Of a stretch of DNA of 42,343 bases, positions 6,503-42,343 are shown in pieces. Below the pieces are notes generated by a model. That model was not told where the DNA came from. It made no database searches and worked only from the letters and a program-made list of their open reading frames with translations. The DNA comes from a virus. Taxonomy: Duplodnaviria > Caudoviricetes. Made by a program: the position numbers and the translations under genes. The stretch covers positions 1 to 42,343 of the IMG/VR virus record IMGVR_UViG_3300037424_001802, one strand, 5' to 3'. The number at the start of each line of letters is the position of its first letter. Positions within the stretch are counted from its first letter, which is position 1.

Positions 6503-6963
6503 GTTGTCAAATATGTGGAGGTAAAGATGGGCACCATTTTGTTGACTGCAACAAAATGGTAGGAGTTTTACAGAAAGATATGATTAATAAAGCTGAAGAT
6601 GGAGTTTTAAAAATGTACGAAACAAACAATACTTTCCCGTTAAAAGAAGATGGTGCTGTAGTATATGATATTTCAAAAGAATCTACTACCCAGGAAAAGA
6701 TAGATACCCTTTTCTATAATTTTAAAGAGTTCCTTAAAGAGAAGAATATACGATACGGAGATTCTGCGCTTAACCCTTTACAAATATTTCCAATTAATGA
6801 TCCTGAAATATTAGAATTATGTGTACGAGCTAATGATAAATGTTCGAGAATAAAAAACAGTAAAGAGGGGTTGAGGAGATCAGATGTTTGTGATTTATTT
6901 GGTTACATATCTTTAATTATGATTAAAAAAGGATGGTTAAAATTCGATGAGGAAATAGATTGA
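6499..6963 (+). CDS. DUF1599 / nucleotide-modification-associated domain protein
   Basis: LKEKNIRYGDSALNP...RANDKCSRI...DLFGY; ATG 6499 follows GGAGGAGG. Confidence 0.7.
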   Translation: MSCQICGGKDGHHFVDCNKMVGVLQKDMINKAEDGVLKMYETNNTFPLKEDGAVVYDISKESTTQEKIDTLFYNFKEFLKEKNIRYGDSALNPLQIFPINDPEILELCVRANDKCSRIKNSKEGLRRSDVCDLFGYISLIMIKKGWLKFDEEID

Positions 6964-11217: not shown

Positions 11218-12147
11218 ATGGCACTCACATTAGTTGAAGCTGCAAAACTTTACGCAGGAGATCCTATCCGCTCCGCTATCATAGAACTCTATGCTAGAAA
11301 TTCGGATATACTTAGAACCCTTCCTTTTATGGAAATACAAGGAAACGCTTATAAGTATAATAGGGAAGAAACATTACCTGGTATCGGATTCAGGGGTGTT
11401 AATGAAGGTTATACAGAAAGTACAGGTATATTAAATCCGATAACTGAACCGCTTGTAATCGCCGGTGGTGATCTTGATGTTGACAAGTTTATTGTTGATA
11501 CCATGGGAGCCAATCAGAGAAGTGTTCAGGAAGCAATGAAAGTTAAGGCTCTGTCTCTTAACTGGACTTTAAAATTCATCAAAGGTGATCAGACAACTGA
11601 GCCTAGAGAATTTGACGGTCTTCAGGTTCGTTGCGTAGGTAATCAGGTTATTGGTGCTGGAACTACTTCCGGTGGAGATGCTTTATCGTTAGCAAAACTC
11701 GATGAACTCATTGACGCTGTTGATAGCCCGCAATATTTGATTATGAACAAAACGATGAGACGTAGATTAACTCAGGCTTCGAGAACTTATACTGTTGGTG
11801 GTTTTATTACTTATTCACAAGATGAGTTTGGTAGAACACAGACGGTATATAATGATCTGCCTATTTTAATAGCTGATCAGGATAACGAAGGGAACCAGAT
11901 TCTTCCGATTACAGAAGTATCTTATAACGGTGGAACTTCAACAAGTACATCTATTTATTGTGTATCTTTTGGAGACGGTATGTTAATGGGTCTTCAAAAT
12001 GGCGGAATGGATGTAAGAGATCTTGGAGAGATTCAGACAAAACCTTGTTTCAGAACTCGTGTTGAATGGTACAATGGTTTAGCTGTATTTAATGGTAAAG
12101 CGGCTGCAAGACTTCGTTACATATCTAACGCTGCTGTGGTAGCATAA
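11218..12147 (+). CDS. Major capsid protein (HK97 fold)
   Basis: MALTLVEAAK, YNREETLPG..FRGVNE, GGDLDVDKF, EFDGL, RTRVEWY.GLA; 309 aa. Confidence 0.93.
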   Translation: MALTLVEAAKLYAGDPIRSAIIELYARNSDILRTLPFMEIQGNAYKYNREETLPGIGFRGVNEGYTESTGILNPITEPLVIAGGDLDVDKFIVDTMGANQRSVQEAMKVKALSLNWTLKFIKGDQTTEPREFDGLQVRCVGNQVIGAGTTSGGDALSLAKLDELIDAVDSPQYLIMNKTMRRRLTQASRTYTVGGFITYSQDEFGRTQTVYNDLPILIADQDNEGNQILPITEVSYNGGTSTSTSIYCVSFGDGMLMGLQNGGMDVRDLGEIQTKPCFRTRVEWYNGLAVFNGKAAARLRYISNAAVVA

Positions 12148-12624: not shown

Positions 12625-13056
12625 ATGTCTAAAGTTACAAAAACTTATGATAATAATCTTCTTTTAAAAGACGCTGGTCTTATTGCCTCATCACAAGCTT
12701 GTAAAGTTGGTGGGGCAGCTAAGATCCTTGATATTGGTTCTGGAGCTATGGAAGGGGATGTGATTATAGATGTTACTGCTTGTGAAATAGCGAGTAACGA
12801 TGAGTCATATCAGATTGGTGTTCAAGTGAGTAGTGATAGCGCTTTCGCTTCTGATTATTATGAAGTTGCTTCTTTATCTATCGGGGCTCTTGAAATTATT
12901 CCCGGTGATATAGATATGGAAACTGGCAGATATGTTATTAGATTCAGAAATACTATTGCTGAAAATGTAACGAAAAGATATCTAAGGCTATATGTTACCG
13001 TTGTAGGTACTATTTCTACAGGTATCAATTTTGTGGCATATTTGGCTAAGAGATAA
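12625..13056 (+). CDS. Capsid cement/decoration protein 2 (paralog)
   Basis: TYDNNLLLKDAGL...ILDIG...KRYLRLYVTV.G...GINFVAYL. Confidence 0.75.
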   Translation: MSKVTKTYDNNLLLKDAGLIASSQACKVGGAAKILDIGSGAMEGDVIIDVTACEIASNDESYQIGVQVSSDSAFASDYYEVASLSIGALEIIPGDIDMETGRYVIRFRNTIAENVTKRYLRLYVTVVGTISTGINFVAYLAKR

Positions 13057-13068
13057 GGAGGAGATAGA

Positions 13069-13800
13069 ATGTCTAAAGTTACAAAGTCTTATGATAATGA
13101 TCTTCTTCTTAAAGATGCTGGATTAGTAGCTGCATCTGCCGCATGTCAGGTTGATTCTGCTGATCAGATTATAGACCTTGGTGTTGGTTTGGTTGAAGGT
13201 GATATAGTAATTGATGTCACAGCTTGTGAAGTTGTAACAGGAAATGAAATATATCGTATTGGAGCTCAAATAAGTAGCGATGATGGTTTTGCTTCTGATT
13301 ATTATGAAGTTGCCACTTTGTTTCTGGGATCTGCTGGAACTGCGATAGCTTCTTCTAGCCCTAGTTCGAGTGCAAGTTCTTCACCGAGTTCAACTGCCAG
13401 CCCAAGCGCTTCTGTAAGTTCAAGTCCTAGTACTTCACCAAGTTCGAGTGCAAGTTCTTCACCGAGTTCAAGTGCAAGTCCAAGTACTTCACCAAGCTCG
13501 AGTCCTAGTTCTTCACCAAGTCATAGTGCAAGTTCTTCACCGAGTTCAAGTGATAGCCCAAGTGCTTCAGTAAGCTCAAGCCCAAGTTCTTCAGCAAGCT
13601 CAAGTCCAAGTGCTTCTACTTTTTCAGCAGTAGCACATATACCTGGGGATACTAACATGGGTGTTGGCCGGTATATCATGAAGTTCAGAAATGCAATAGC
13701 TGATAACACAACAAAAAGATATTTAAGATTATATGTTACAGTTAGCGGTACAGTAGCAACAGGAATAAATTTTGTTGCATATCTGTCAAAGCAAGGTTAA
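13069..13800 (+). CDS. Capsid cement/decoration protein 3 with internal Ser/Pro tract
   Basis: Close paralog of 12625..13056 with about 90 aa of SSSP repeats inserted. Confidence 0.75.
   Translation: MSKVTKSYDNDLLLKDAGLVAASAACQVDSADQIIDLGVGLVEGDIVIDVTACEVVTGNEIYRIGAQISSDDGFASDYYEVATLFLGSAGTAIASSSPSSSASSSPSSTASPSASVSSSPSTSPSSSASSSPSSSASPSTSPSSSPSSSPSHSASSSPSSSDSPSASVSSSPSSSASSSPSASTFSAVAHIPGDTNMGVGRYIMKFRNAIADNTTKRYLRLYVTVSGTVATGINFVAYLSKQG
13351..13620 (+). repeat. Ser/Pro (SSSP/SASSSP) coding repeat tract 1
   Basis: 90 codons, almost only S, P, A and T. Confidence 0.95.
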
Positions 13801-15757: not shown

Positions 15758-16501
15758 ATGAAAGAAATATTTAGAGATATTGAAAGATATGAAGGTTTGT
15801 ATCAAATCAGTAATTTTGGTCAAGTAAAAAGTTTAAAAAGAATAGATTTAAATAATCACTTATTAGAAGAAAAAATTTTGAAGAACAGTCTTACTCTAAA
15901 AGGTTATTTTCAAACAGCTTTATATAAAGACAGTAAAGTTGCTCGTTTTGCTACTCATCGTCTTGTAGCACAAGCATTTATTCCTAACTTAGAAAATAAA
16001 CCTCAAATTAATCATAAAAATGGGGTTAAAATATGTAATGAAGTTTGGAATTTAGAATGGGTAACGGCGAAAGAAAACACTTGTCATGCAGAAAAAATGA
16101 ATTTAAGAAATTCTAAAGGTGAGAATAATTTTACTTCAAAATTAAAAAACGAGGAAATCATAAAAATTAGAAACGAGTGTAAAAAATATACTGTTCCAAT
16201 TTTATCTAAAAAATATAATATAGATGAAATAACAATATGGAGAATAATAAAAGGGGAGGCTTGGAATCATATTCCTTATTTTGAAAAAGAAGAAAATATT
16301 AAATTTTTTAATAGTGAAGAATACAAACTATTAAAAAGCAGACAAAGAAAAAATGTTAAACTTTCTGAAAGAGAAGTAAAAGAGATTTTAAGATTAAAAG
16401 GGAAGCGTCCTCAAAAAATAATAGCTAAATTTTATAATATAAGTAAAGATCATGTAAAAGGAATCCATCGAAGAAAAGTATGGTCCTGGGTGGAGGTATA
16501 A
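15758..16501 (+). CDS. NUMOD4-HNH homing endonuclease with two C-terminal HTH repeats
   Basis: EIFRDIERYEGLYQISNFGQVKS; HRLVAQAFIPN.ENKPQINHKNGVK..N.VWNLEW. Confidence 0.92.
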   Translation: MKEIFRDIERYEGLYQISNFGQVKSLKRIDLNNHLLEEKILKNSLTLKGYFQTALYKDSKVARFATHRLVAQAFIPNLENKPQINHKNGVKICNEVWNLEWVTAKENTCHAEKMNLRNSKGENNFTSKLKNEEIIKIRNECKKYTVPILSKKYNIDEITIWRIIKGEAWNHIPYFEKEENIKFFNSEEYKLLKSRQRKNVKLSEREVKEILRLKGKRPQKIIAKFYNISKDHVKGIHRRKVWSWVEV

Positions 16502-18661: not shown

Positions 18662-21379
18662 ATGACTGTTTTAAATAAACAATTTAATAATATCAATGAC
18701 TTAAATAGAGATGATACCGGTTTGTCCGGTATTACTATTAGTAGTCCTCTTGAAACAAGTATAGAATTGATTTCTGGAAGTCCTGGTGAAAGTCAAGCTT
18801 TAACCCATAATAGTCTTAGAAATATTCAAGGTGGAATTACAGAAGCTAGATACCATTTGTCTTTAACTGAATATAACAGTTTAATGGATTTTTTAGAAAG
18901 CAATGGTGGAAGCATTGTTGAATTCGCTAATGTCGCTGCTTTTCCGGCAACAGGTGAAGATTTAACTATATATATCGCTCTTGATACAAATTTGGCTTAT
19001 AGATGGAGTGGGACAATTTATGTAGAGATTTCTGCGAGTTTGGCTTTAGGAGAAACGGAGGCTACAGCCTATCGTGGAGATCGTGGCAAAACAGCATATG
19101 ATCATTCACAGGCAACTCATGCTCCGTCAGATGCGGAAGTAAACGTGCAGGCTGATTGGAGTCAATCTGATAATGGTCAAGATGATTTCATTAAAAACAA
19201 ACCAATAATCCCTGGAGATTATCCTCCAAATGGTGTGGATTCTGATGTTCAGTATAGAAAAGGAGATATTTTTGCTGGGGATATCAATTTACAATATGAT
19301 GATGCTAGTGTCACTCTTAAAATAGGGACAGACATTACTATCCTTCCTGATAACCCCCTTGCTATACAAAAAACTGTAGATAGTTATTTACAAGTAAACC
19401 TTCAAAATTTGTCTGATGGGGTAGACGCTTCTTCTGATTATATAGTAACTGCTGACACGGGAGACGATACTCAAGGTTATGGAGACTTTGGAATTGGAAA
19501 TTCCGGTTATGCTAGTGAGGCTTGGGATGTAGTTGGGCCTATTGATACTTATTTATTTGGTGATGGTGGAAATATTGCAATAGGATCATTAACTCCCGGT
19601 AAAGAAGTAAAAGTATTTATAGCTCAAACTGAACATGAAGCACATCCTGAAGATGTGGTTACTGAATTTAATAGTGATGGGATTAATTTACCTGTTAATA
19701 AAACATTAAAAGCACATTACATACAATATAACTCAAATCCGACTAAACCTGCATTTGCTAATGGTCAACAATTTTATGATGCTACGAATAAAACTATTGC
19801 TACAAGAATTTCTGATGGAGTCACTTTACAGCATGGACAAGAAAGTCATGTAATATGTTATAATAATACAGGGTCTACCATATTGAATGGTAAGGTAGTA
19901 TATATTTTAGGAGCTGTTGGAAATTTTCCATCAATAGCACTTGCAAAAGCAGATCAGGTAGCCACATCTGATGGTAGAGTTTTAGGAATGGCAACTCAAG
20001 ATATTGCAGATGGGGAAACAGGGTTAGTTACAAATTTTGGGAAAGTTAATGATCTTGACACATCTTCTTGGGCATCTGGAACTATTTTATATTTATCTGA
20101 AACTACGGCTGGCGATGTAACTTCAACTCCTCCGATAAGTCCCTATTCAACAATAAAGTTAGGATACGTAATTTCACAACATGCTACTACGGGGAATATT
20201 CTTATTCATATAAGTTTTGCAGGAAATCTTGATGATATTATTGATGTAACAATAACAAATCCACAAGAAGACCAAATATTAAAATATAATGGTACTAATT
20301 GGATAAATGGAGAATCAGTTGCAGCAAATGCAGGAGCTGGTGTAAATTATTTTTATGATATGTCCGCTTCGGATATAGGCGGATATTATTCATTACAAAA
20401 GACTCCTGCTGATGAAACCGAAGATGACAACTATGTAGTATGTAATAATAATGAAGTGGCTATTGAAACTTTTGCTTCTCCACTTGCAGGATTAGGTGGT
20501 ACACAAATAGATGCGGGAGTATGGTCATTTAATATCTGGGGGTATGTTGATACTATTTCTGGTGGAGATTCTAGTGTTGATATTGATGTATATAAAAGAA
20601 CATCTGGCGGTACAGAAACCTTATTATTCAGCATTAATTCAGGAATTTTAAGTGCTTCACTTGATTTATATACTGTTGAGTCTGCGCAACAATCATATGC
20701 AATTAATTCTACGGATAGATTAATTATAAAATTATATGGTAAGACTACTGCTACTGCTAATAGGAATGTACATTTTGTCCATGCAGGAACGACACATTAT
20801 TCTTATGTAAATACTCCTTTAGTTGTTAGACATAATGATTTGATTGGGATACAAGGTGGGACAAGTGGGGATTATCAACATTTAACAACTACAGAATTAG
20901 GCTATATCCATGCACCTCATTCGGATGATCAAGTTATTCCTGATGAGTTAGCAGATTTATCTGATGATGCTACACATCGATTGGTTACTGATACAGAAAA
21001 ATCTACATGGAATAGTAAATCCGATCTAGCACTTGGTGAATTATCAAGTGATGCATATCGGGGTGACAGAGGTAAAACGGCTTATGATCACTCGCAAGCA
21101 ACTCATGCTCCAAGTAATGCAGAACAAAATGTACAGGCAGATTGGAACGAAGCTGATTCAGGGGCAGATGATTTTATTAAGAATAAACCGAGTATCCCTG
21201 CTGGTGTTACTCCCGGTGATACAGTGGCAAATGAAATCACTTTTGGTATAACGCCAGCGGCAGGAGCAGCAACAAGTTTTTCTCGTTCGGATCATACGCA
21301 TGGAACACCTGCAAATCCAGGTGGCGGGGGAGTTACAAGATCGCAAATGAATTCTATGATTATCGCATTTGGAGTGTAA
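18662..21379 (+). CDS. Large mosaic fibre/whisker-like structural protein
   Basis: Fibre-type modules: duplicated AYRGDRGKTAYDHSQ..VQADW...FIKNKP, LDDIIDVTIT..QILKYNGTNW, FSRSDHTHG. Confidence 0.7.
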   Translation: MTVLNKQFNNINDLNRDDTGLSGITISSPLETSIELISGSPGESQALTHNSLRNIQGGITEARYHLSLTEYNSLMDFLESNGGSIVEFANVAAFPATGEDLTIYIALDTNLAYRWSGTIYVEISASLALGETEATAYRGDRGKTAYDHSQATHAPSDAEVNVQADWSQSDNGQDDFIKNKPIIPGDYPPNGVDSDVQYRKGDIFAGDINLQYDDASVTLKIGTDITILPDNPLAIQKTVDSYLQVNLQNLSDGVDASSDYIVTADTGDDTQGYGDFGIGNSGYASEAWDVVGPIDTYLFGDGGNIAIGSLTPGKEVKVFIAQTEHEAHPEDVVTEFNSDGINLPVNKTLKAHYIQYNSNPTKPAFANGQQFYDATNKTIATRISDGVTLQHGQESHVICYNNTGSTILNGKVVYILGAVGNFPSIALAKADQVATSDGRVLGMATQDIADGETGLVTNFGKVNDLDTSSWASGTILYLSETTAGDVTSTPPISPYSTIKLGYVISQHATTGNILIHISFAGNLDDIIDVTITNPQEDQILKYNGTNWINGESVAANAGAGVNYFYDMSASDIGGYYSLQKTPADETEDDNYVVCNNNEVAIETFASPLAGLGGTQIDAGVWSFNIWGYVDTISGGDSSVDIDVYKRTSGGTETLLFSINSGILSASLDLYTVESAQQSYAINSTDRLIIKLYGKTTATANRNVHFVHAGTTHYSYVNTPLVVRHNDLIGIQGGTSGDYQHLTTTELGYIHAPHSDDQVIPDELADLSDDATHRLVTDTEKSTWNSKSDLALGELSSDAYRGDRGKTAYDHSQATHAPSNAEQNVQADWNEADSGADDFIKNKPSIPAGVTPGDTVANEITFGITPAAGAATSFSRSDHTHGTPANPGGGGVTRSQMNSMIIAFGV
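19040..21199 (+). repeat. Two-copy internal repeat of about 58 aa (19040-19213 and 21026-21199)
   Basis: LALGE....AYRGDRGKTAYDHSQATHAPS.AE.NVQADW...D.G.DDFIKNKP.IP in both copies. Confidence 0.9.
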
Positions 21380-21931: not shown

Positions 21932-24763
21932 ATGGCTTTAACATCAAATTTTTTAAAGAAACAAGTAGACTTACCAGTATGGGAACAACTAAGATATGCT
22001 CCGGCAGTATCTTCAGCGATAAGTGATGCCTGTAGTGCGGACAATAGTAATTTCCATATACAACATGGAAGATATATATATTATTTAATTGCCGCTGCTG
22101 GATTTTGGAGATATGATACTTGGACAGATATGTACATGCAATTATCTTCCCCGGCAATTACTCCTGCGACATGGGCAGCGATACGTTTTGCAGGTTCATT
22201 AGGAGTTGAAGGATTAGCTCTTGCAGGAGGCACAAATACAATTACGATTCCTGCTTATTATGGAAAAGTTCTCAAAAGTTTTGACATAAGAATTATTGCT
22301 GGGCTTGGGGTAGGTCAAAGAAGAGTTATTACTGATGTTGCTGAACCTGTTATTGCAGAAACTGGTGTTGCGACTGCTATTGCGAACGCCTTGGGCGGTA
22401 TTACAATTACGGATTCAACTAAGAACTGGGCATTTAACTATTGGGCAGGTTATCAAGTTAGAATTTATTCAGGCTCAGGTATTTCACAAATAAGAAGGGT
22501 ATTATATAATTCTGCAACTGTTTTAACTTTAGGTGACTCTGTAATATCCGCGAGAGAAACTTTTTGTAACCCAAATATATTTTCTCCGGCAATTGCGATT
22601 ACGGCTGGATTGCAATCTGTGTATGTGATTGAATCTTCAGTAGTAACTGTGGATAGTAATTGGGGAACTGCTCCAGATGCAACTTCAATTTTTAGAATAG
22701 AGTCAGGTTCAATATTTTTATATTCCAGTGCTGCTGCAACTCCATTTTATACTGTTCAGCAATATGATATTGCAACAGATACTTGGTATATTAGAACTGC
22801 GAATACTCTTGGTGTATCCGCAGTAGGTACAGATGGAACCTGTGAAAGAACAACAGAAAATGCCTCTGTATGGGCAAGAGGGAAAGCAACAGGTGGAACA
22901 GTAAATACTCTTATTGACACTGGGAAAAATTGGGTGGTCGATCAATGGGTTGGATATTATGTAAGAATATTTTCTGGAACTGGAGAAAATCAACTCAGGG
23001 TAGTTTCTGCAAACACCGCAAATACTTTGACTTGGGTTACGGCAGGAACAGCACCGGATACAACGTCTTATTATTTGATTGATGGTTTTGATTCTGGAAC
23101 TCCTACTTCTGCAACATCTTCTTCAATTACGGATTCAACTAAAGCATGGACTGTAAACCGTTGGACAAACTATTCTGTAAGAATAACATCCGGAACTGGA
23201 AAAGGACAAGTAATTCCTATTGTAAGTAATACGGCGACAGCACTTACATTGTTATATGCAGCTACAGTTACTCTTGATACTACTTCTCTATATTGTATTC
23301 AAGCGGATATTGATAAAAATTATTTGGCAATGGGTGGAAATTCTTCTATTTTAATTCATAATTTAGATGATGATATTGGAAGTTATGGAAGAAGGGTAGA
23401 TGGTGGTGCGGCTAGAATAGCAAGTGTGCAATATAGCGGTAGAAAACCAATAGGGATTACTTCTGCAACACACGTAACCACTACAGCAACGATTACAACA
23501 GCAATTGCACATGGTTTAAAAGTCGGTTGGTCCATTACAGTAAGAGGATTTACTGATGCAAACTATAACACTACGGCGACAATTGTAACTGTTCCTTCGG
23601 CAACAACTTTTACTTATGTTATGTCAGGAACTCCATCTGTTGATACAATTGTAGGTTCACATTCTACATCTACTTTATGTGATGCTACTAAAACATGGAC
23701 AACTAATCAATGGGCCGGATATGTTTGTTATATGACGACTTCAGCAGTAACAGCTGCTTCAGGACTTACGACTGGTCAAGCAATGCAAATTGCTTCAAAT
23801 ACAGCGACTACTTTAACATTTACAGGTGTTGCAACTGCTGCTCCGACAAATGGTGTCTCAAGATATGTTATTTGTAAAAGGGCGATTATAGGTTCAATAA
23901 GTGATGGATTGGCAACTGGAACACAATCTACTACCACTTTACAAGACACAAATAAAGCGGCTACTCTTACGGGTTCAATGACTTCCGGATTATTTGTTTT
24001 GACTGTTTCCGTAATAGCAACAAATTCTTTGGAATTAGGAATGTCTATAACAGGAACAAGTATTCCTACAGGCACGGTAATTATAAATCAATTAACTGGA
24101 ACTCCTGGTGGAGTTGGAACATATACTTTATCAAGAGCAGCTACGGCTGGCATATCCGGTGCAACGATTAACTATGCATGGGTAGTAAACTTTTTTGCTG
24201 GCAGAAGATTAAAAATGTTAGGCGCTACTGGTCAGGCACAGGAAATACCCGTCCTTAGTAATACTAGCAATACACTGACATGGCTTACCGCTGGAACTGC
24301 TCCGGTGACTCTGATGACTCCTTATGTTATAATGCATCAACAAATGAGAGGACTCGGAGTAGCAATGAACTGGGGGTTTGGAACAAGCAATTTGGCAATA
24401 AGAGGTAAATATTTCTTTATTCCAAGAGGTGGTGCTGTTCTTGGATTTGATAGATGGGATATGACCACAGATCAAATAGATTTAATGCCAATAACTCCTC
24501 AAATAGAAACATTAACAACTGGTTCTATGTATGCGTATGATGGCGGCGATAGATTGTATTTTACAAAAGAAGCTACGCTAAGAGTATATTATTTAGATTT
24601 AACTACAAATACTTTACATGGTGCAGGAATGATACCTTATTTAGCAGGTACAGCGATAATTGGGAATAGAATGGAAATATTCACTACGGAAGATGGATTA
24701 AAATATTTATGGATAAATAGACATTCTTTACAAGATTGTTATAGAGCATTATTATTTTGGTAA
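21932..24763 (+). CDS. Large Thr-rich repeat protein (propeller-like blades with inserted beta domains), putative adhesin
   Basis: Five D..K.W..N.W.G..V.I.SG.G..Q...V..N.A..LT repeats; Kelch-like FWRYDTWTD, QQYDIATDTW and DRWDMTTD. Confidence 0.65.
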   Translation: MALTSNFLKKQVDLPVWEQLRYAPAVSSAISDACSADNSNFHIQHGRYIYYLIAAAGFWRYDTWTDMYMQLSSPAITPATWAAIRFAGSLGVEGLALAGGTNTITIPAYYGKVLKSFDIRIIAGLGVGQRRVITDVAEPVIAETGVATAIANALGGITITDSTKNWAFNYWAGYQVRIYSGSGISQIRRVLYNSATVLTLGDSVISARETFCNPNIFSPAIAITAGLQSVYVIESSVVTVDSNWGTAPDATSIFRIESGSIFLYSSAAATPFYTVQQYDIATDTWYIRTANTLGVSAVGTDGTCERTTENASVWARGKATGGTVNTLIDTGKNWVVDQWVGYYVRIFSGTGENQLRVVSANTANTLTWVTAGTAPDTTSYYLIDGFDSGTPTSATSSSITDSTKAWTVNRWTNYSVRITSGTGKGQVIPIVSNTATALTLLYAATVTLDTTSLYCIQADIDKNYLAMGGNSSILIHNLDDDIGSYGRRVDGGAARIASVQYSGRKPIGITSATHVTTTATITTAIAHGLKVGWSITVRGFTDANYNTTATIVTVPSATTFTYVMSGTPSVDTIVGSHSTSTLCDATKTWTTNQWAGYVCYMTTSAVTAASGLTTGQAMQIASNTATTLTFTGVATAAPTNGVSRYVICKRAIIGSISDGLATGTQSTTTLQDTNKAATLTGSMTSGLFVLTVSVIATNSLELGMSITGTSIPTGTVIINQLTGTPGGVGTYTLSRAATAGISGATINYAWVVNFFAGRRLKMLGATGQAQEIPVLSNTSNTLTWLTAGTAPVTLMTPYVIMHQQMRGLGVAMNWGFGTSNLAIRGKYFFIPRGGAVLGFDRWDMTTDQIDLMPITPQIETLTTGSMYAYDGGDRLYFTKEATLRVYYLDLTTNTLHGAGMIPYLAGTAIIGNRMEIFTTEDGLKYLWINRHSLQDCYRALLFW

Positions 24764-26695: not shown

Positions 26696-27268
26696 ATGCA
26701 AGAAATCTGGAAAGACATTCCGGAATGGGAAGGTTTTTATCAAGCAAGTAATCTTGGTGGGCTTAAAAGATTAAAAAGAATTGTACCTAATAAATTAGGA
26801 TATAATTCTTTTTTACCTGAAAAGATATTAAAACAGACTCTTGATCCTCTTGGATATTATCGAGTGCATCTTTGTGTGAATCATAAAGGTGGGAATAAAA
26901 AGGCACATAGATTAGTTGCATCAGCTTTTTTAGATAATCCTAAAAATTTGCCTCAGGTGAATCATAAAGATTTTAATAAATCTAATAATAATATTAATAA
27001 TCTTGAATGGATTAGTGATGAAGACAATAGAAAGCATTTTGTAAAAAGTGAGTATTCAGAAGTTCATAATTCTAAATCCAGAGGGGAGAATAATAAAACT
27101 TCAAAATTAAAAGAGATAGATATTTATCTTATAAGAAAATTTAGAAATGAGTATAAGTTTAAATTGCAGACTTTAGCTAACCTTTTTGGGGTTCATCTTT
27201 CGCAAATTGGAAAGATAGCTAATTTTAAAGCATGGGAACATATTAAAGAAAATAAGGAGGCTATATAA
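26696..27268 (+). CDS. NUMOD4-HNH homing endonuclease
   Basis: EIWKDIPEWEGFYQASNLG; HRLVASAFLDNP.NLPQVNHKDFNKSNN.INNLEW. Confidence 0.92.
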   Translation: MQEIWKDIPEWEGFYQASNLGGLKRLKRIVPNKLGYNSFLPEKILKQTLDPLGYYRVHLCVNHKGGNKKAHRLVASAFLDNPKNLPQVNHKDFNKSNNNINNLEWISDEDNRKHFVKSEYSEVHNSKSRGENNKTSKLKEIDIYLIRKFRNEYKFKLQTLANLFGVHLSQIGKIANFKAWEHIKENKEAI

Positions 27269-33686: not shown

Positions 33687-35312
33687 ATGATAACTAATTT
33701 GTTTAAACATAACTCACGCTCATATTATGATGTTTACAATGCCATGGTAGCGGCTTATCCGCGTAAACCTACCTGGTTATTCAAAGAAATGGCCGGGTTA
33801 TTCGATTTCTCCTCAGAACTTATGAATAGAATAGCTACTGACATTCTGTACCCAAAAACAAGAGAATCTGCATATGCTTTTGCTAATCTATGCGATTACT
33901 CACCCACAGAAGCAGACGGTGCAACAGATATATTGACGATAACCCTTTCCGGGGCAATGAGCAAAACTCTTGCTATTAGATATCAGGTCGCAGGGTCTTC
34001 CCTTGCAACAGGAAAAACAGTTATCTATGAATTAACCGCAACAGGGAATTCTGGGGGGACAGGAACTATAACAGTTGCAGCAAAGCAAAAGAAAACTGTT
34101 TCTAATGTCTTATTAGGCACCATTGCAAATTCAGATGATTTTAGCGATTACCCTATAGATGGTTACACCAAAATAATAAAAAGCTCCATCACATTAACAA
34201 TAGATTCAGTCACATGGACAAGGGTAGATAATTTTGATAATTCCGGACCCACAGATCATCATTTTATTTTAATATATCAATCAAGTAGTAAGGTAAGATA
34301 TGGATTTGGCGATGGTGTTACCGGGGCTAAACCTACAGTTAATTCGTCTGTTTATGGTAATTTTGAAACCACTGAAGGCAGCAATGGCCAAATGGATGCC
34401 GGAGAAATAACAATAAATACCGGTGGAGATAATGATATTGTTTCCATAACAAACGCGGGAAGCAGCGGCGGAAATGATTCAGAAAGTATTTCTTCGATCA
34501 TTAGAAATGCAAGAGGGAATGTAAGGCTTAAAAATATGGTTTGGTCACAGGAAGATCTCGAAACTGCTGCAAGATCATCTTCCAGCTCAGTTCAAAAAGC
34601 GTTGGGGATACCTAATGAACCAACAGTGGGAGAAGCTACCATTCAGATAATTTCTACTTTAAGTCACTCCGATAAAACAGGAGTACCAAGTGGAGGGCTG
34701 AAAAGTTCAGTGGATATCTATGTAACGGCATTAACCCAGTTTGGAGTAATGCCTATAACAATATCAGATCCTTCCACGGTAAGCGCTAATATTTCAGTTG
34801 AATTTACGGTAAGAACCGGGTATGATTTAGGAACAGTTATAAATCTGCTTGGGTTTGCAATGACATTAATAACATGCTGCGCGGATAATCAAATTACGGA
34901 ATATTATGATGATGAAGGAATAGATGCTTGCCGGGAAAACGTAATAAATGTATTATGGGATTGGGCGTTTGTTGAAGATGATAACGATGCCCTTGAATTT
35001 ATTATACAGAAGTGGCAATCATTATTGTCATCGTCCGGAAGAGAATTTAGGGACTGGGGATATTCCTTAGAAGTCGGCACAATTTGGATCATGGGAGATA
35101 GTTTAGGAGATTATGGTGTAGATACATTTAATGTGATATCACCGACAACAAATACAACTGTTACGGCAACTCAAATAATAAACACAGGAACTATTGTAGT
35201 TGCTAATGCTGATGGTTCAAGCAGCCCAAGTTCTTCACCAAGTTCTTCACCAAGTACTTCATCAAGCTCAAGCCCTAGTACTTCACCTAGTAGTAGCCCT
35301 AGTGCGAGTTAA
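33687..35312 (+). CDS. Baseplate wedge J / gp6-like protein with C-terminal Ser/Pro tail
   Basis: FGDGVTGAKP, SGGNDSESISSIIRNA, EDLETAA; ends in SSSP repeats. Confidence 0.88.
   Translation: MITNLFKHNSRSYYDVYNAMVAAYPRKPTWLFKEMAGLFDFSSELMNRIATDILYPKTRESAYAFANLCDYSPTEADGATDILTITLSGAMSKTLAIRYQVAGSSLATGKTVIYELTATGNSGGTGTITVAAKQKKTVSNVLLGTIANSDDFSDYPIDGYTKIIKSSITLTIDSVTWTRVDNFDNSGPTDHHFILIYQSSSKVRYGFGDGVTGAKPTVNSSVYGNFETTEGSNGQMDAGEITINTGGDNDIVSITNAGSSGGNDSESISSIIRNARGNVRLKNMVWSQEDLETAARSSSSSVQKALGIPNEPTVGEATIQIISTLSHSDKTGVPSGGLKSSVDIYVTALTQFGVMPITISDPSTVSANISVEFTVRTGYDLGTVINLLGFAMTLITCCADNQITEYYDDEGIDACRENVINVLWDWAFVEDDNDALEFIIQKWQSLLSSSGREFRDWGYSLEVGTIWIMGDSLGDYGVDTFNVISPTTNTTVTATQIINTGTIVVANADGSSSPSSSPSSSPSTSSSSSPSTSPSSSPSAS
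35217..35309 (+). repeat. Ser/Pro coding repeat tract 2
   Basis: 31 codons of S/P/T/A at the C-terminus. Confidence 0.95.
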
Positions 35313-35321
35313 AGGAGAAAT

Positions 35322-37994
35322 ATGGCAGATTATGATTTTATAACAACGTGTAATTGGACTACAACTGGAGCTTTTACACTTAGAGCATATATAGGTAACA
35401 CTACAGATGTAGTTACATCTGTTAGTCTTTTTTATCGTAAAAAAGGGGATCTTACATGGATTGAAACGACTGATGGTACAATCAACATTACATCTACAGG
35501 TGAATGGGAAGTTGGTAATGATTGGAATAAAAGCGGAAATGATGTATTAACTCATTCATATCATGGAATTACTGCAATTGATGCTTGTACAAGTGTTGAA
35601 TTTGATATAGATACTTTAGGTATTACAATAGGAAATTATTTTCTTTATAGATGTTGGTATAATTGTACAAATTTAACATCGATGCCTTCAGGATTCAATT
35701 TACCAACAGGTATTACAAGTGTTGGAACTTATTTTCTATATTCATGTTGGCATGGATGTAGTTCATTAACATCGATGCCTTCAGGATTCAATTTACCAAC
35801 AGGTATTACAAGTATTGGGGCTAATTTTATTCATTCTTGTTGGCGTGGATGTAGTTCATTAACATCGATGCCTTCAGGATTCAATTTACCAACAGGTATT
35901 ACAAGTGCTGAGAATGGTTTTCTTATGTATTGTTGGTATGATTGTACAAATTTAACATCGATGCCTTCAGGATTCAATTTACCAACAGGTATTACAAGTG
36001 TTGGAACTTATTTTCTTTACGCATGTTGGTATAATTGTACAAATTTAAATAATAATGATTATACAGAAGATATAGATTTTGAATATGATGCACTATATGT
36101 TTTTGATGGAACTTGTCCAATTACACCTAATAATATTAGTGGAGCTACTCCCGAAAGTCCAATTTCGGTTGCAATCAATAGATTAGCTAGTGGTAATAGT
36201 CCTAGTGCTTCACCTAGTCATAGCCCAAGTTCAAGCCCTAGTCCAAGCTCTAGCCTAAGCCCTAGTTCGAGCCCTAGTTCGAGCCCTAGTTCATCAGAAA
36301 GCCCTAGTACTTCACCTAGTTCTAGTCCAAGCTCTAGCCTAAGCCCTAGTACTTCACCTAGTTCTAGTCCAAGCTCTAGCCCTAGTTCTTCTGTGAGTTC
36401 TAGCCCAAGTTCTAGCCCTAGTTCTTCTGTGAGTTCTAGCCCAAGTTCAAGCCTAAGCCCAAGCACTTCTATGAGTTCTAGCCCAAGTTCTAGTCCAAGC
36501 ACTTCTGTAAGCTCTAGCCCAAGTTCTAGTCTAAGCCCAAGCACTTCTATAAGCTCGAGTCCAAGTTCAAGCCCTAGCCCTAGTTCTTCACCTAGTTCTA
36601 GTTTAATAATAAATTTACCTAATAATTATTTTAATTTCAATATTCCTACTTTTAATTCTGCTTTTGGACAAGACTGGACTTCTTTTCAAACTATTACTGA
36701 TGATAATGTAGATCATTCTATCGATAAAATTGTTCAGTTATATTGGCTTAAAGACCCAGCTAAGATGTCAGTCTTGGCTCTTGAAATTTCTTTACGACTT
36801 CGTGGAATTAAATTCAGTTCAACAGATTCCGTAGCAGTTAAAAAGTTTAAATTAAGAAATTTTGTGGCTCAGTTTATGAATAAAGGCTTAATGGATGCTT
36901 ATCTTGATTTAGTAGAAAATATAACAGAAGAAAGAGGAATATTAGAATTATCTTCTATTTCTAATTTTGAAGTATTTTTTGATACAAAAGCAGAATATGA
37001 ATATAATCAATATTTACCTACTCTCGCTGCCTTACCTGCAAATTATCAAATTGTTCAAAGCTCTTCCTATGTTATGAACGAAAATTATGTTTCTTGTCTT
37101 CTTTTAGATACAATAGCAGGGGAATATTATTTAGGCTGTTACCAACTTAATAATGGCATTGCTAGTCTTGTTGGAAGTTTATTTGATTTAGGTCCAGCAT
37201 CTTCTACTATTGAACTTGCAGGAATGAACAGTACTGATATTGCTACTCTTCAATATAATCTTAGCAATGGAACATTATCATATTATAGATTTAATGGAAG
37301 CACATGGTCATTAGTTGGTGATGCTCTTGTAATATCTCTATCATACAAAATAGGAAATATGAATAGTACAGATGTTATGATTGGAACATATTCCGGAATT
37401 TCTAATTATTTATCATGTTATAGATTTAATGGAAGTATATGGTCATTAGTTGGAAGTAGATCAAGTGATATTGGACATAGCATTTTATATTCCACTAGAA
37501 TAAATGATACTGATATAATGACGGTTTATGATTCCTCTCCCAATCAATGGTTTAGAAGATATAATTTTAATGGGAGCATATGGTCATTAGTATATAGTCA
37601 ATTAACACCTGATACCTCTTTAAATTACATCCCTTTTCTTTGGGATGAGAATGAACTTATTCTTGGCTCGGTAGAAGTCTTTGGAGGTCAGAATAGACAT
37701 CTTATAAGAATGGATGTTAGTAATACTCCTTGGACTATTATAGAAAATTTTGATATGAATGAAAATTATTTAGGAAATTTTTTAAAGGTTGAAGAAGAGC
37801 TGATATTCGTTTCGGATACAAATTTTTATGTTTTTGAAATAGATTCTCAAAATCTTTTCCATTGGAGTACAATAAGTGTAGAATTAGATAAAATAGAAGA
37901 ATTATTAAATGAAAAAACTATGCATCCTGCATTTTATAAAATGAATATAGTCAATGACCAATACGAAAAAAATATTTTAAGAGTTATTATTTAA
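35322..37994 (+). CDS. Baseplate wedge I-like protein fused to BspA-like LRRs, a Ser/Pro stalk and propeller-like repeats; putative receptor-binding protein
   Basis: Follows J; LKDPAKMSVLALE...KG..DAY gpI-like segment; 31-aa LRRs; YRFNGS.WSLV repeats. Confidence 0.7.
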   Translation: MADYDFITTCNWTTTGAFTLRAYIGNTTDVVTSVSLFYRKKGDLTWIETTDGTINITSTGEWEVGNDWNKSGNDVLTHSYHGITAIDACTSVEFDIDTLGITIGNYFLYRCWYNCTNLTSMPSGFNLPTGITSVGTYFLYSCWHGCSSLTSMPSGFNLPTGITSIGANFIHSCWRGCSSLTSMPSGFNLPTGITSAENGFLMYCWYDCTNLTSMPSGFNLPTGITSVGTYFLYACWYNCTNLNNNDYTEDIDFEYDALYVFDGTCPITPNNISGATPESPISVAINRLASGNSPSASPSHSPSSSPSPSSSLSPSSSPSSSPSSSESPSTSPSSSPSSSLSPSTSPSSSPSSSPSSSVSSSPSSSPSSSVSSSPSSSLSPSTSMSSSPSSSPSTSVSSSPSSSLSPSTSISSSPSSSPSPSSSPSSSLIINLPNNYFNFNIPTFNSAFGQDWTSFQTITDDNVDHSIDKIVQLYWLKDPAKMSVLALEISLRLRGIKFSSTDSVAVKKFKLRNFVAQFMNKGLMDAYLDLVENITEERGILELSSISNFEVFFDTKAEYEYNQYLPTLAALPANYQIVQSSSYVMNENYVSCLLLDTIAGEYYLGCYQLNNGIASLVGSLFDLGPASSTIELAGMNSTDIATLQYNLSNGTLSYYRFNGSTWSLVGDALVISLSYKIGNMNSTDVMIGTYSGISNYLSCYRFNGSIWSLVGSRSSDIGHSILYSTRINDTDIMTVYDSSPNQWFRRYNFNGSIWSLVYSQLTPDTSLNYIPFLWDENELILGSVEVFGGQNRHLIRMDVSNTPWTIIENFDMNENYLGNFLKVEEELIFVSDTNFYVFEIDSQNLFHWSTISVELDKIEELLNEKTMHPAFYKMNIVNDQYEKNILRVII
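35628..36044 (+). repeat. 93-nt tandem LRR-coding repeats with an invariant 48-nt core
   Basis: TTAACATCGATGCCTTCAGGATTCAATTTACCAACAGGTATTACAAGT at 35673, 35766, 35859 and 35952. Confidence 0.95.
36198..36602 (+). repeat. Ser/Pro coding repeat tract 3
   Basis: 135 codons, almost only S, P and T. Confidence 0.95.
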
Positions 37995-38428
37995 AACGAT
38001 AATCTTACCCCTAGCATATAATTTCTCATTACACATTCTAAATGGGAAAATATTCCTACCACTTGCCAAATATTTCTTAACCAATGTGTAGGTAATATAT
38101 AAGATATTAAAAAATGCGATGTCCCCCATATTCCGGCTGTAATAAACAATCTTTGTTTAGAAGGACGACTGCTTAAAATAGAATTAGCTTCAGTACTGCC
38201 ATCAGGATTTTTATGTAAAAAAGTATAAGTCTGCCACAAATCTATTCCAGCTATTGTTAAAAATCCTAATTCTAAAAAAGTATCACGAGTGTCCCATTCC
38301 TCTTTTTCCTGCCTTATCCCTTGATAATAATTTAATTCATCTGATGAAAAACTTGCTAATCTATAACTTTGAGCAAAACAACTCGAAGCAACCATCAACA
38401 CAACTAAAATCATTATTATTTGTTTCAT
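37991..38428 (-). CDS. Exported/membrane protein (moron)
   Basis: GGAGG RBS, signal peptide MKQIIMILVVLMVASSCFA, hydrophobic segments; convergent with the baseplate gene. Confidence 0.75.
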   Translation of the reverse strand: MKQIIMILVVLMVASSCFAQSYRLASFSSDELNYYQGIRQEKEEWDTRDTFLELGFLTIAGIDLWQTYTFLHKNPDGSTEANSILSSRPSKQRLFITAGIWGTSHFLISYILPTHWLRNIWQVVGIFSHLECVMRNYMLGVRLSF

Positions 38429-38763: not shown

Positions 38764-39084
38764 ATGGTTGAAATTATTGAATATATTAAGCTCCACATTG
38801 ATGGCAGTAAGTTTATTTTCATTATTATTGGTATTGTTGGTTTCTTTCTTAAAATAATAGCAAAGTATATACAGAAGAAACTTAATGAACTTGAGAAACT
38901 GAAAGACGAAGTAAAAAGCATAGCAAATAGAGTTGAGATATATGACATGAGACAAGAAGGCCGTGAAGGATTTACTTCAACTGTATCCGATCATGAAACG
39001 AGACTCAGGGTGCTCGAGGAATTAGAACGAAGACAAAACAATATACCGATAAATTTTAAGGATAGAAGGAGAGCAAAGGAATGA
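38764..39084 (+). CDS. Single-TM coiled-coil protein, holin-like
   Basis: FIFIIIGIVGFFL TM segment, DHETRLRVLE; coupled to the peptidase gene. Confidence 0.55.
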   Translation: MVEIIEYIKLHIDGSKFIFIIIGIVGFFLKIIAKYIQKKLNELEKLKDEVKSIANRVEIYDMRQEGREGFTSTVSDHETRLRVLEELERRQNNIPINFKDRRRAKE

Positions 39085-39662
39085 AATACGATATAAAGTA
39101 CAACAGCCAACGCAACAATAACTCCTTTGATGGTAAATTTCCAGCATACTCGCAATGCTTCTCTACTTCTACTTTCATGCTAATGTCTTTTTACTCATTT
39201 GAAATAGATGCACTTGATGATCGGCAACTCGCTAAATATGTTGATGATGTAGAAATTTCCGTGGGTATTATTCCCGGACTCGCGGAAGAACTCCGTAAAA
39301 AGAATCCAAAAGTAACTGGTTATACCTCTCTTTTCTGGGAGATACAACACGCAGGATTAAACAAATGGCTTCATGAGAAAGGAGTTCAAGGTAATGCCAT
39401 GCTTAATCTTAATGCTTCCTTTGCAGATATAAGGCAAGTATTAAATTCCGGTCCAGTTGTTATAGGTACAAATAAAATGGGAAACCTCCCCGGCGGACAT
39501 GTGATCCTGGGCGTTGGAAAAGATGATTTAAGTATAATTTGTTTAGACCCATTTGGTGATGCTCGCAACAATTATACAGATGGAACCGGAGACTCAGTTT
39601 ATTATTATGATGAATTTTTAAAGAAATATTTTACCGGAAGAATATTATACTGGAGATCATAA
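39081..39662 (+). CDS. C39-family cysteine peptidase, candidate endolysin
   Basis: YNSQRNN...QCFSTS...GGHVIL...CLDPFG (Cys-His-Asp). Confidence 0.75.
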   Translation: MKYDIKYNSQRNNNSFDGKFPAYSQCFSTSTFMLMSFYSFEIDALDDRQLAKYVDDVEISVGIIPGLAEELRKKNPKVTGYTSLFWEIQHAGLNKWLHEKGVQGNAMLNLNASFADIRQVLNSGPVVIGTNKMGNLPGGHVILGVGKDDLSIICLDPFGDARNNYTDGTGDSVYYYDEFLKKYFTGRILYWRS

Positions 39663-39663
39663 A

Positions 39664-39927
39664 ATGAAAAAAATACTCATTATAGTGTTAATTATTCTAT
39701 TTCTTGTTTTACCATTATTCGCGGAAGAAGCAAAGAAACCGATAATTAAATATAAAGTTCCCGAAGTAACCTTATTAATTTCCGATGGAGTCGCTTTTAT
39801 ATAACGCATAGGTGGCCTTCAATATATTTTTATTATTCATCAAAGTGGTGCCGCCCTCATACAGATGCAAGAAAATGATAAAGATGGTAAAGTCATAATG
39901 AAAAAATGTGAATGTGAAAACATCTAA
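39664..39927 (+). pseudogene. Signal-peptide protein interrupted by an in-frame TAA at 39802-39804
   Basis: MKKILIIVLIILFLVLPLFAEE...VAFI*RIGGLQYIF...DKDGKVIMKKCECENI; the full frame fills the gap between neighbours. Confidence 0.6.
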
Positions 39928-39939
39928 GAGGAGAACACC

Positions 39940-40272
39940 ATGGAAAGCAAATTAGAGCAGGAAGCCAAAGACGTTAGTATGGGATATTGTGAGCATCATA
40001 CGGAATTCGAAAATAAAATAAATTGTATCATTGAAGTTCAGGAAGATAAAATGATGGATATATGGAAAATGACAAAGGGCGAACTGTACAAGATCGTCTT
40101 AGATAGTCAGGAAGTAATTTTAGGGCATATCAATGGTCTCAAGGATATGGTGACTAACTTTTTAAATACAACAGCCCGGGCAACGGAAAGGCATGACAAA
40201 GAAATAGAGAAGCTGAATATCCGTATGCAACAGATAGAAAAAAGATATCATGATGGGAGAAAGAAGGAGTAG
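39940..40272 (+). CDS. Hypothetical coiled-coil protein
   Basis: GAGGAG RBS; heptad pattern at the C-terminus. Confidence 0.7.
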   Translation: MESKLEQEAKDVSMGYCEHHTEFENKINCIIEVQEDKMMDIWKMTKGELYKIVLDSQEVILGHINGLKDMVTNFLNTTARATERHDKEIEKLNIRMQQIEKRYHDGRKKE

Positions 40273-40275
40273 TAT

Positions 40276-40620
40276 ATGAAAACAAAAGAGCATAAAATAT
40301 TAAAGGCAATGTTTTATAGTGGTGGAGAACTTTATATGCCATGGGTTTACGCTTTTGTGTTTCTATTTATTATAGCTCTATATTTAATTGTGCGATTGAT
40401 TTCCCCACTTGGAGTAACGGATAAAGTACATCTTTCTGATGATTTAATAATTAAATTATTTTACGGAGTAGTCGGACTTATCGGAGTAGCAACAGCAGGA
40501 AGGGCTTTAAAAAATAATAAAAATAATAGTAACGACATAAATAAAGCCTTTGATAAGGTAAGAGGTTTGGAAGAGCAAGTTAAAAATGTGATAGGTCCGG
40601 ACACGGATCTTCATATGTAA
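40276..40620 (+). CDS. Two-TM membrane protein, holin-like
   Basis: Two hydrophobic segments and a charged C-terminus; AAGGAG RBS. Confidence 0.55.
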   Translation: MKTKEHKILKAMFYSGGELYMPWVYAFVFLFIIALYLIVRLISPLGVTDKVHLSDDLIIKLFYGVVGLIGVATAGRALKNNKNNSNDINKAFDKVRGLEEQVKNVIGPDTDLHM

Positions 40621-40651: not shown

Positions 40652-42232
40652 ATGGGTAGTAACGGAGTATCGTTTTTAATTCCGGCGCGTAATGAGAAGT
40701 ATCTACAAAACACAATTGATAACATTCTACAAAACATCCGGGGAGACAGTGAAATTATTGTAGTATTAGATGGCTATGTACCAGATCCTCCGATTGTTTG
40801 TACGGATAGCCGGGTGATGTTTATAAAGCATGAAACGTCTATAGGGCAACGAGCTGCGATCAACGAAGCGGCGAGGGCATCAACGAAAGATTTTATTTTC
40901 AAGGCCGATGCGCATTGTGCAATAGATGAGGGTATGGATACAAAGTTGATGGCAGATTGCGAGTATGATTGGACCGTCATACCTCGCATGTACAATCTTG
41001 ACATAGAAACATTTAAACCTAAGTTCAATAAGCGTACCGATTACATGATGGTTAGTTGGAATGACAAAAATGAGTTAAGATCTTTATATTATACTGGTAA
41101 AGATTTTCGTAAATGGCATGATAGATCGGAATTAATAGACGATACAATGTGTAATATGGGGCCTGGATTTTTTATGCATAAAAAACGATTCATTGAAACA
41201 GGCATGTGTGATGAAGGGCATATTGGGGGTTGGTCGATGCAAGGAATAGAAACAAGTTGTAAAGCGTGGCTTTCAGGAGGGCGATTAGTTGTAAATAAAA
41301 AAACATTTTTTTCACATTGGTTCCGAGGAAACATAGGCTTTCCTTACCCTATGTCAGGAAGAACTATAGATAAAGCCCGCAAATATTCTATGGATTTGTG
41401 GTTAAACAATCGTTGGCCTCAACAAACAAGAAAATTTTCATGGTTAGTTGAAAAATTTTGGCCAGTGCCGGGATGGACAGAAGAAGATATAGCTGCATTA
41501 AAAGAGCAGGAAAGAACCGGTGAAGATTACATGACTATTAGAAAAAGATTAATAGAAAATAAAAAACAAAAGGAAGATAAAATAAAAATGAAGGAAAAAG
41601 AAAAGGGATTGCCAAATAATGCAGGAGTAAATATAGATGAACTGCATAGAATTTTTTATAAGAATGTACATTTAAAAGGTAGAGATTTACGTTGGAAAGG
41701 ATTACGCATGATTAAATTACCCATGGATATCTGTTTATACCATGAAGCAATTTGGGAAAGGAAACCTGATTATATGGTGGAAATAGGTACCGCATTCAGC
41801 GCCTCGGCCGTCTTCTTTGCTGATATGCTAAGATTAGTAGGGAATGGTGGTAAAGTAATAAGTATTGACCCTAGTCCACGATCTCCTGTAGTAGAAGACC
41901 CTGATATAACTTATTTAACCGGTGATTCAAAAGATCCCGAGATAGTCAAAAAAGTAAAAGAAATTATTGGAGATAAATCGTGTATGGTAAGTGTAGATGG
42001 AGACCATTCCAAACACCAAGTACAATGGGATCTTTACCGATATAGAGATGTTGTTACTCCAGGACAATTTTTAGTTTGTGAAGACTGCTACGATAGAAAC
42101 GGAGCGAAATATGGTCCTAAACTGGCACAGGAATGGTTTTTAGCAAAGCATAAAAATTTTGAATTACTACATCCCGAAGCAAAATATCTTATAGGATTTA
42201 CCCGGGATTCATGGCTTTTAAGGAGGAAATAG
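40652..42232 (+). CDS. GT-A glycosyltransferase (ppGalNAc-T-like motifs) fused to a CmcI-family SAM O-methyltransferase
   Basis: SFLIPARNE, EIIVVLDG, KADAHC, G.CDEG..GW...GIE.S.KAWLSGG...SHWFR...PY; then WKG...KLPMD...HE.IW..KPD..VEIGT...VDGDHS...PGQFLVCED. Confidence 0.88.
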   Translation: MGSNGVSFLIPARNEKYLQNTIDNILQNIRGDSEIIVVLDGYVPDPPIVCTDSRVMFIKHETSIGQRAAINEAARASTKDFIFKADAHCAIDEGMDTKLMADCEYDWTVIPRMYNLDIETFKPKFNKRTDYMMVSWNDKNELRSLYYTGKDFRKWHDRSELIDDTMCNMGPGFFMHKKRFIETGMCDEGHIGGWSMQGIETSCKAWLSGGRLVVNKKTFFSHWFRGNIGFPYPMSGRTIDKARKYSMDLWLNNRWPQQTRKFSWLVEKFWPVPGWTEEDIAALKEQERTGEDYMTIRKRLIENKKQKEDKIKMKEKEKGLPNNAGVNIDELHRIFYKNVHLKGRDLRWKGLRMIKLPMDICLYHEAIWERKPDYMVEIGTAFSASAVFFADMLRLVGNGGKVISIDPSPRSPVVEDPDITYLTGDSKDPEIVKKVKEIIGDKSCMVSVDGDHSKHQVQWDLYRYRDVVTPGQFLVCEDCYDRNGAKYGPKLAQEWFLAKHKNFELLHPEAKYLIGFTRDSWLLRRK

Positions 42233-42233
42233 G

Positions 42234-42343
42234 ATGAGTAGACCCTTTTTATATATAGATAATGGGGAAACAAAAATATGTAGTAAATGTAATAAAGAGA
42301 AGCCTATAAAAGAATTTAGAAAAATAAAAAATAAGACATTGTT
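42234..42343 (+). CDS. 3'-partial Zn-finger protein, probably an endonuclease VII/HNH-type N-terminus
   Basis: MSRPFLYIDNGETKICSKCNKEKPIKEF after GGAGG. Confidence 0.5.
   Translation, partial: MSRPFLYIDNGETKICSKCNKEKPIKEFRKIKNKTL

Follow-up and report, generated by a model that had tools for sequence, protein, structure and literature searches.

What a glycosyltransferase (GT) resembling the polypeptide GalNAc-transferases (ppGalNAc-Ts) of mucin-type glycosylation does in a tailed phage, and on which acceptor it acts, is the question raised by a gene at the end of an uncultured virus record (IMGVR_UViG_3300037424_001802). The window, that is, the whole stretch of 42,343 nucleotides analysed here, is the entire virus record, which is linear and estimated to be 43% complete. 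Its genes for terminase, portal, major capsid protein, tape measure and baseplate J make up a tailed-phage structural module, and lysis-like genes come after them. The GT gene, sole copy of its family in this 43%-complete record, lies downstream of the lysis genes, at least 4 kb from the nearest of the alternating-serine (Ser-X) tracts described below, and stops 111 bases short of the contig end. Directly upstream there is a lysis-like cassette (38764-40620) with a C39-like peptidase and small membrane proteins, near which a lone ORF lies on the minus strand (37991-38428). An ORF with a Cys motif (42234-42343, cut by the contig end) was recognised by eye, and five homing-endonuclease genes (HNH, NUMOD4, LAGLIDADG) lie in the packaging/structural module, at 739-1296, 5672-6502, 6960-7829, 15758-16501 and 26696-27268. 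The main features are collected in Table 1.

Table 1. Positions in the window of the two-domain gene, its motifs, the candidate acceptors and the capsid gene used as bait
Feature	Position	Strand	Basis
Two-domain gene, 526 aa: GT27-like GT-A glycosyltransferase and CmcI/rhamnosyl-type O-methyltransferase	40652..42232	+	ORF and domain search
GT-A domain, aa 1-293; ppGalNAc-Ts are the best fold matches	40652..41530	+	AF2 model, pLDDT 94.7
DxH motif D86-A-H88, aligned to mouse GalNAc-T1 D209/H211; family-invariant	40907..40915	+	phmmer alignment
W194-S-M-Q-G-I-E200, aligned to T1 W316-G-G-E319-N-L-E322	41231..41251	+	phmmer alignment, family alignments
C-His H222 (T1 H344) and F224-R225 of the HxFR motif	41315..41326	+	phmmer alignment, family alignments
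O-methyltransferase domain, PF04989 aa 345-524	41684..42223	+	PF04989, CmcI 2bm8 and NCBIfam matches
Major capsid protein, bait for control phages	11218..12147	+	
Capsid cement/decoration paralogue 3, 243 aa, candidate acceptor	13069..13800	+	Paralogue 2 plus 99-aa Ser/Pro insertion
Ser-X insertion of cement paralogue 3, jelly-roll loop after strand 78-87	13330..13626	+	41/42 alternate Ser
Baseplate J-like wedge protein, added C-terminal Ser-X tail 35217-35309	33687..35312	+	13/13 alternate Ser
890-aa baseplate-region (baseplate/fibre) protein, Ser-X stalk 36189-36602	35322..37994	+	66/66 alternate Ser

An earlier note on this DNA had described the range 40652..41530 as a glycosyltransferase with GT27-like signatures and without the ricin lectin domain. 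The range fits the GT domain, but the ORF runs on to 42232 with a fused O-methyltransferase, and it is this PF04989/CmcI methyltransferase that stands at the C-terminus, where no lectin is present. The PF04989 match (E 1.2e-30) reaches 107 bits against a cut-off of 23, and the CmcI structure 2bm8 matches the C-terminal domain with E 9e-12; the NCBIfam rhamnosyl O-methyltransferase model NF045824 gives E 6.6e-22, but its 78 bits are below the 400-bit cut-off. A similar C-terminal domain is found in 74 of the best 120 homologues. No transmembrane segment was detected in the 526-aa protein, the top 19-residue hydropathy (1.44, at aa 378) falling inside the methyltransferase. The GT domain begins at residue 6 in the phmmer alignment, and Pfam assigns it only to generic GT2, with PF00535 matching the window copy at aa 7-140 only; in PHROGs, a family for the 526-aa protein was not found.

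Sequence, profile and predicted-structure searches all put polypeptide GalNAc-transferases (GT27) first, in agreement with the signatures noted earlier. When residues 1-293 were searched against the PDB with phmmer, ppGalNAc-T1 ranked first (E 4.6e-6) and ppGalNAc-Ts made up 15 of the 18 matches listed, including 8uhv (Toxoplasma T3). With a family profile built from 45 sequences, the top eight PDB chains were all ppGalNAc-Ts (best E 2.4e-9). The AF2 model, searched with Foldseek against the PDB, gave ppGalNAc-Ts in all 33 rows seen among the matches listed (ranks 1-48, duplicates hidden), and VIA-align placed mouse T1 (Z 25.4, rmsd 3.2, 268 residues aligned) and Toxoplasma T3 (Z 24.8) ahead of the next entry (Z 18.3). 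Moreover, all the motif coordinates of the earlier note were confirmed, the DAHC/DxH motif at codons 40907-40915 and the His at 41315 standing in the spacing expected of GT27: D86-A-H88-C89 starts at 40907, MGPGFF lies at 41156-41173, and H222 at 41315 is followed by FR (R225) and FPY. In the register of the 559-aa mouse T1 chain, D209 corresponds to D86, H211 to H88, W316 to W194, E319 to Q197, N320 to G198, E322 to E200, H344 to H222 and R347 to R225. The D-H-H triad proposed earlier is thus preserved in the alignment, and D86, H88 and H222 are invariant in 45/45 close and 61/61 broader relatives. D209, H211 and H344 are named as key residues of mouse T1 in the available text of PMC4202792; from the alignment to GT27, the three phage residues likely converge on a metal. 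As far as the accessible part of PMC7185993 goes, the DxH motif occurs in GT27 and GT60 alone, both of which are families whose members O-glycosylate polypeptides at Ser/Thr.

The earlier note had also pointed to a change from WGGE to WSMQ and to a donor sugar that may differ. The donor may indeed differ, but what counts is the replacement of E by Q and of N by G across the clade rather than WSMQ as such. In fact, S195 is private to the window copy, G being found there in 44/45 close relatives and in 136/137 members of what is called below group A, and it could impair the enzyme. At the level of the clade, the W-G-G-E-N of GT27 becomes W-G-[S/Q/N]-Q-G, with the consensus W-G-x-Q-G-x-E. E319 and N320 of T1 contact the hydroxyls of GalNAc. 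Their replacement by Q and G makes a donor other than GalNAc plausible. One locus offers a possible hint to a donor: upstream of its GT cluster (L378:1882-5088) there are nucleotide-sugar genes matching PF02719, PF02350 and PF14667, which we take to be a FucNAc-type pathway.

The family is large, with 3011 matches and, at E <=1e-30, 496 clusters at 50% identity. Some members (P0122-P0128) measure 940-1350 aa and contain two to four stretches matching the family profile, probably fused tandem domains. The 281 distinct domains obtained from viral and genome loci were divided by profile E-value into group A (137, including the window copy) and group B (144; for the most part these are additional paralogues from the same loci, with a few borderline A-type sequences included), and the tree of family domains comprises family members only, without GT27, GT60 or GT7 sequences. 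Group A keeps W194, H222 and R225 in 137/137 domains and E200 in 131/137; it reads W-G-[S/Q/N]-Q-G-x-E and retains the W, HxFR and FPY of GT27; an acid at position 197, the xED position, occurs in 1/137. Group B has E or D at the xED position in 141/144 and has mostly lost the W and the R. In the accessible text of PMC7185993, a conserved acid at this position is tied to inverting enzymes; since group A is without it, a retaining mechanism is likely for this group, and group B paralogues are plausible chain extenders. An inverting GT2 polysaccharide enzyme, the best match that the earlier note had set against its own proposal, was rejected: ppGalNAc-Ts are on top in the sequence, profile and structure searches (Foldseek and VIA-align among them), the motif is DxH and not DxD, and the xED acid is present in 1/137. 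Two further features of the family can be mentioned. In most viral relatives the GT domain contains, after window residue 118, a Cys4 zinc-ribbon-like insert that the window's clade does not have (alignment A2), and tract periodicity did not differ with this insert (p 0.37 and 0.78, with a Cys4 detector that looked unreliable). Furthermore, one member (L022:7514-8438) is split by a frameshift just ahead of the donor-loop motif, and it is left out of alignment A2 as well as of the whole-record tract search described below.

If the acceptor is a polypeptide, as the fold suggests, the window offers candidates. Ser-X tracts of 99 aa (the protein at 13069-13800), 31 aa (C-terminus of baseplate J) and 138 aa (the 890-aa protein) occur in three different core structural genes, as far as 27 kb away from the GT gene; taken together, the cores of these tracts show Ser at 120/121 alternate positions. 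The Ser codons are mixed between TCN and AGY (28 and 33, respectively, in the cement insertion), which points to selection acting on the Ser residue itself. Cement paralogue 2 (12625-13056) is a tract-free twin of paralogue 3 (94/143 residues identical); its fold resembles that of the BPP-1 cement protein (Z 13.3, rmsd 2.1, 116 aligned) and that of a Carin1 capsid chain (Z 11.2). In four of the nearest cement relatives a non-repeat insert of ~130 aa occupies the same loop as the Ser-X insertion of the window, and therefore this loop, which follows strand 78-87, would seem to serve for display. Cement paralogues with a domain of ~130 aa inserted in the loop are located at L081:10412, L083:11359, L085:4664 and L086:4327. 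Among 63 cement-like proteins from 58 capsid-anchored loci, none exceeded 15 Ser+Thr per 30 residues. As for the baseplate J protein, its orthologues (66% and 61% identical) end at the start of the window's tail and have no Ser-X tail. The 890-aa protein consists of a BspA-like LRR head (aa 110-243) and the Ser-X stalk placed in front of a core that corresponds to a 192-aa orthologue of related phages, from which the tract is absent; the core has an extra internal insert. Within this lineage, three different structural genes appear to have gained tracts that are missing from their nearest orthologues. Two more proteins of the structural region are unannotated, one of 943 aa (21932-24763), Thr-rich and with internal repeats, which could be a further acceptor, and one of 905 aa (18662-21379), in which a segment is duplicated and which matches the cement domain weakly.

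The association is not restricted to the window. By the rule that a tract must lie on the same strand and within 10 kb, tracts accompany 59/79 viral GT loci (1.23 Mb) and 3/80 capsid-anchored loci (0.92 Mb), these counts including near-duplicates and related phages and hence non-independent events; the three control matches are, by eye, junk frames without Ser-X character. Several kinds of portal and tail are encoded next to the GT genes, and this speaks against a single genome layout passed on by descent. For a test on whole records, 46 of the 79 loci were submitted (every one of the 20 lacking a tract nearby, plus 26 long loci that have one); 44 records were searched and 37 matched the tract pattern, including 21/21 of those at least 90% complete, 20 of them with at least six matches. 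No pattern match was found in 7/19 GT records without a nearby tract, six of which are 3-49% complete and one (G056) 85% complete. As controls the 40 longest of the 80 capsid-anchored records were taken, 8 of them near-complete: the GT family is present in 0/40 (0/8 of the near-complete), the finding of the family in tract-selected records serving as positive control for the profile, and 9/40 show only 1-7 scattered tract matches. In the reverse direction, the family was found in 8/22 tract-selected records and in 3/6 near-complete ones; the first reverse pattern had mostly caught simple SPSP-type repeats, with 8/123 loci passing the filter, three of them doubtful. The enzyme predicts the tracts better than the tracts predict the enzyme. 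Two near-complete or complete records, G090 (L289) and G098 (L297), have Ser-X tracts and no match to the family (A2) or to PF00535; a host enzyme or a GT of some other family may act in them instead. In the closest metagenomic clade a tract is present in 31/80 loci, and in 27/49 of those of at least 5 kb. A tblastn search of 50,697 isolated phage records (INPHARED) gave no match to the window's GT domain.

The Ser-X tracts in three virion genes, together with this family-wide co-occurrence, lend support to the peptide acceptor supposed in the earlier note. We consider it probable that the GT27-like domain starts glycosylation at serines in the Ser-X tracts of its own phage and that the fused domain O-methylates the product; the phage likely sugar-coats its own particle, as far as genome comparison can tell. 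D86, H88 and H222 would hold the metal for the GT27-like domain, which would draw a nucleotide-sugar donor from the host cytoplasm and put the first sugar on the tract serines of three predicted particle proteins by a retaining mechanism. The methyltransferase would then O-methylate the attached sugar or chain. The modification would take place before or during particle assembly, and its outcome would be stiff glycosylated stalks on capsid and baseplate, shielding the particle or holding the LRR head off.

The same pathway of virion glycosylation could be served in another way, with the GT extending a sugar first placed by the host or by an unseen phage enzyme. In the part of PMC7185993 available, glycans are described as being extended by GT-A enzymes that belong to the same clade (GT7, GT2-chondroitin); many loci hold further GTs and methyltransferases, another GT could lie outside the 43%-complete record, and the fused methyltransferase hints at a step of chain capping. 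However, group A keeps the W, HxFR and FPY as GT27 does, with the xED acid in 1/137, and group B, with W and R lost and E/D in 141/144, provides better candidates for extension, which are missing from most loci of the closest clade (a single family copy in 26/31 loci of at least 8 kb). Extension by the window enzyme is therefore judged unlikely. Even if priming is granted to the family, the window copy itself might be degenerate, S195/M196 weakening or killing the enzyme, or an assembly error might be involved: relatives have G at 195 in 44/45 and 136/137 cases, and the public contigs of four runs are patchy and leave the WSMQ codons uncovered. Yet the reading frame is unbroken, no metal or core residue has been lost and the tracts are near-perfect (120/121), which gives a degenerate copy very little chance.

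A target other than the virion has also to be weighed. Phage GTs that modify host surfaces or DNA bases are known. Here, a host surface glycan or receptor, or the phage DNA, would be the substrate, and the tracts would be unglycosylated flexible linkers spread as one mobile cassette; the complete phages that have tracts and lack the family would fit, as would the assignment by Pfam to generic GT2 only. Against this, the protein has no membrane segment, the neighbours inspected are virion genes, GTs and methyltransferases, and the tracts are distributed over three core structural genes, as far as 27 kb away from the GT, and do not occur in the orthologues, so that they have not arrived as one cassette. 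We regard such a target as quite improbable and retain the priming of the phage's own tracts.

The phage enzyme would work like GT27 but departs from that family on three points, lectin, anchor and donor motif. With the CAZy GT27 enzymes (mouse T1 8v9q/1xhb, human T2, Toxoplasma T3 8uhv) it shares, in the predicted model, the GT-A fold (Z 25.4), and the DxH with the C-His, the G-loop, the W..E and the HxFR..PY align in register; both likely act on Ser/Thr/Pro-rich proteins. The phage protein is ~20% identical, is encoded by phages and prokaryotes, and has neither the ricin lectin nor the type II membrane anchor, an O-methyltransferase being fused instead; moreover, its WGGEN motif is altered, W and the last E being kept and E319/N320 becoming Q/G across the subfamily. 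GT60 carries a WGEE-type motif. With this family (Skp1 GlcNAc-transferase type, PF11397) the DxH and the polypeptide acceptor would be shared, to judge from the available text of PMC7185993, and in BFVD there are phage proteins labelled 'Glycosyltransferase, GlcNAc' among the fold neighbours (E ~1e-11 to 1e-12, 9-16% identity). Membership of GT60 is not supported by Pfam, as PF11397 matches 4/61 family members with a best E of 0.052 and does not match the window copy.

Among known systems, mycobacteriophages (Che8 gp108-110, Corndog, Myrna; Freeman et al. 2023) are described, in the accessible parts of the literature, as glycosylating their own capsid and tail with their own GTs (PMC12363180, PMC11256854). 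Virion glycosylation is therefore known, and the present case is like the Che8 type in that phage GTs would modify their own virion, but the enzyme family differs from that tested case: in a comparison that covered Che8 gp108-110, gp110 gave an hhalign probability of 0.1%, gp109 was non-significant and gp108 matched over the generic N-terminal part only. Serine-rich repeat proteins (SRRPs) are the other term of comparison; their priming enzyme is the GtfA/GtfB pair, of GT-B fold. In SRRP systems (GspB, Fap1, PsrP, SraP), according to the part of PMC6973325 available, a binding region is borne on a long Ser stalk with alternating-serine tracts, which co-encoded GTs glycosylate. The alternating-Ser tract is shared (120/121 positions), whereas here the enzyme is a GT27-like GT-A one and the tracts are Pro-rich and belong to virion proteins. 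No GtfA/GtfB or SecA2/SecY2 was found among the 49 ORFs of the window (a 43%-complete record) or in the scanned loci. A description of a GT27-like phage family was not found in the open-access literature. If the proposed role is true, many uncultured phages cover themselves with mucin-like sugars by means of an enzyme family other than that of mycobacteriophages, and a large family bears no annotation beyond generic GT2. A GT27-like enzyme that is small, soluble and free of lectin and anchor could also serve bacterial O-glycoengineering.

The family extends to bacteria, which may bear on the evolutionary source of mucin-type glycosylation. A GTDB scan gave 180 relatives; the best 79 loci include many whose record titles name Patescibacteria groups, and in 45 of these 79 a tract is found within 10 kb, some tracts exceeding 1000 residues. 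In four loci (L378, L389, L352, L397) family genes and methyltransferases are followed by a large Ser-X protein and then by tatC, and a strong tatC match is present in nine genome loci and in zero viral loci. These bacterial loci resemble the Gram-positive SRRP loci (PMC6973325) but end in tatC and not in secA2/secY2, with both another priming enzyme and another exporter. The N-termini of the chromosomal-locus proteins did not show a twin-arginine signal. From these data a wider picture may be drawn, which we offer tentatively: a large, soluble sister family of GT27 in prokaryotes and phages would belong to a mucin-type pathway in which (Ser-X)n stalks receive brushes of methyl-capped O-glycans from one conserved primer, variable paralogues that bear the acid, and methyltransferases, on the capsid and baseplate in phages and on giant Tat-linked surface proteins in Patescibacteria. 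If true, the origin of the mucin-initiating enzyme would be placed outside eukaryotes. In the four loci named above, and also in L333, L345, L348, L357 and L374, the large Ser-X protein ends in a conserved motif of ~45 aa. The chromosomal loci also contain a small ORF made of this motif alone, two tatA-like ORFs recognised by eye, and tatC, and the record title of L389 names Gammaproteobacteria.
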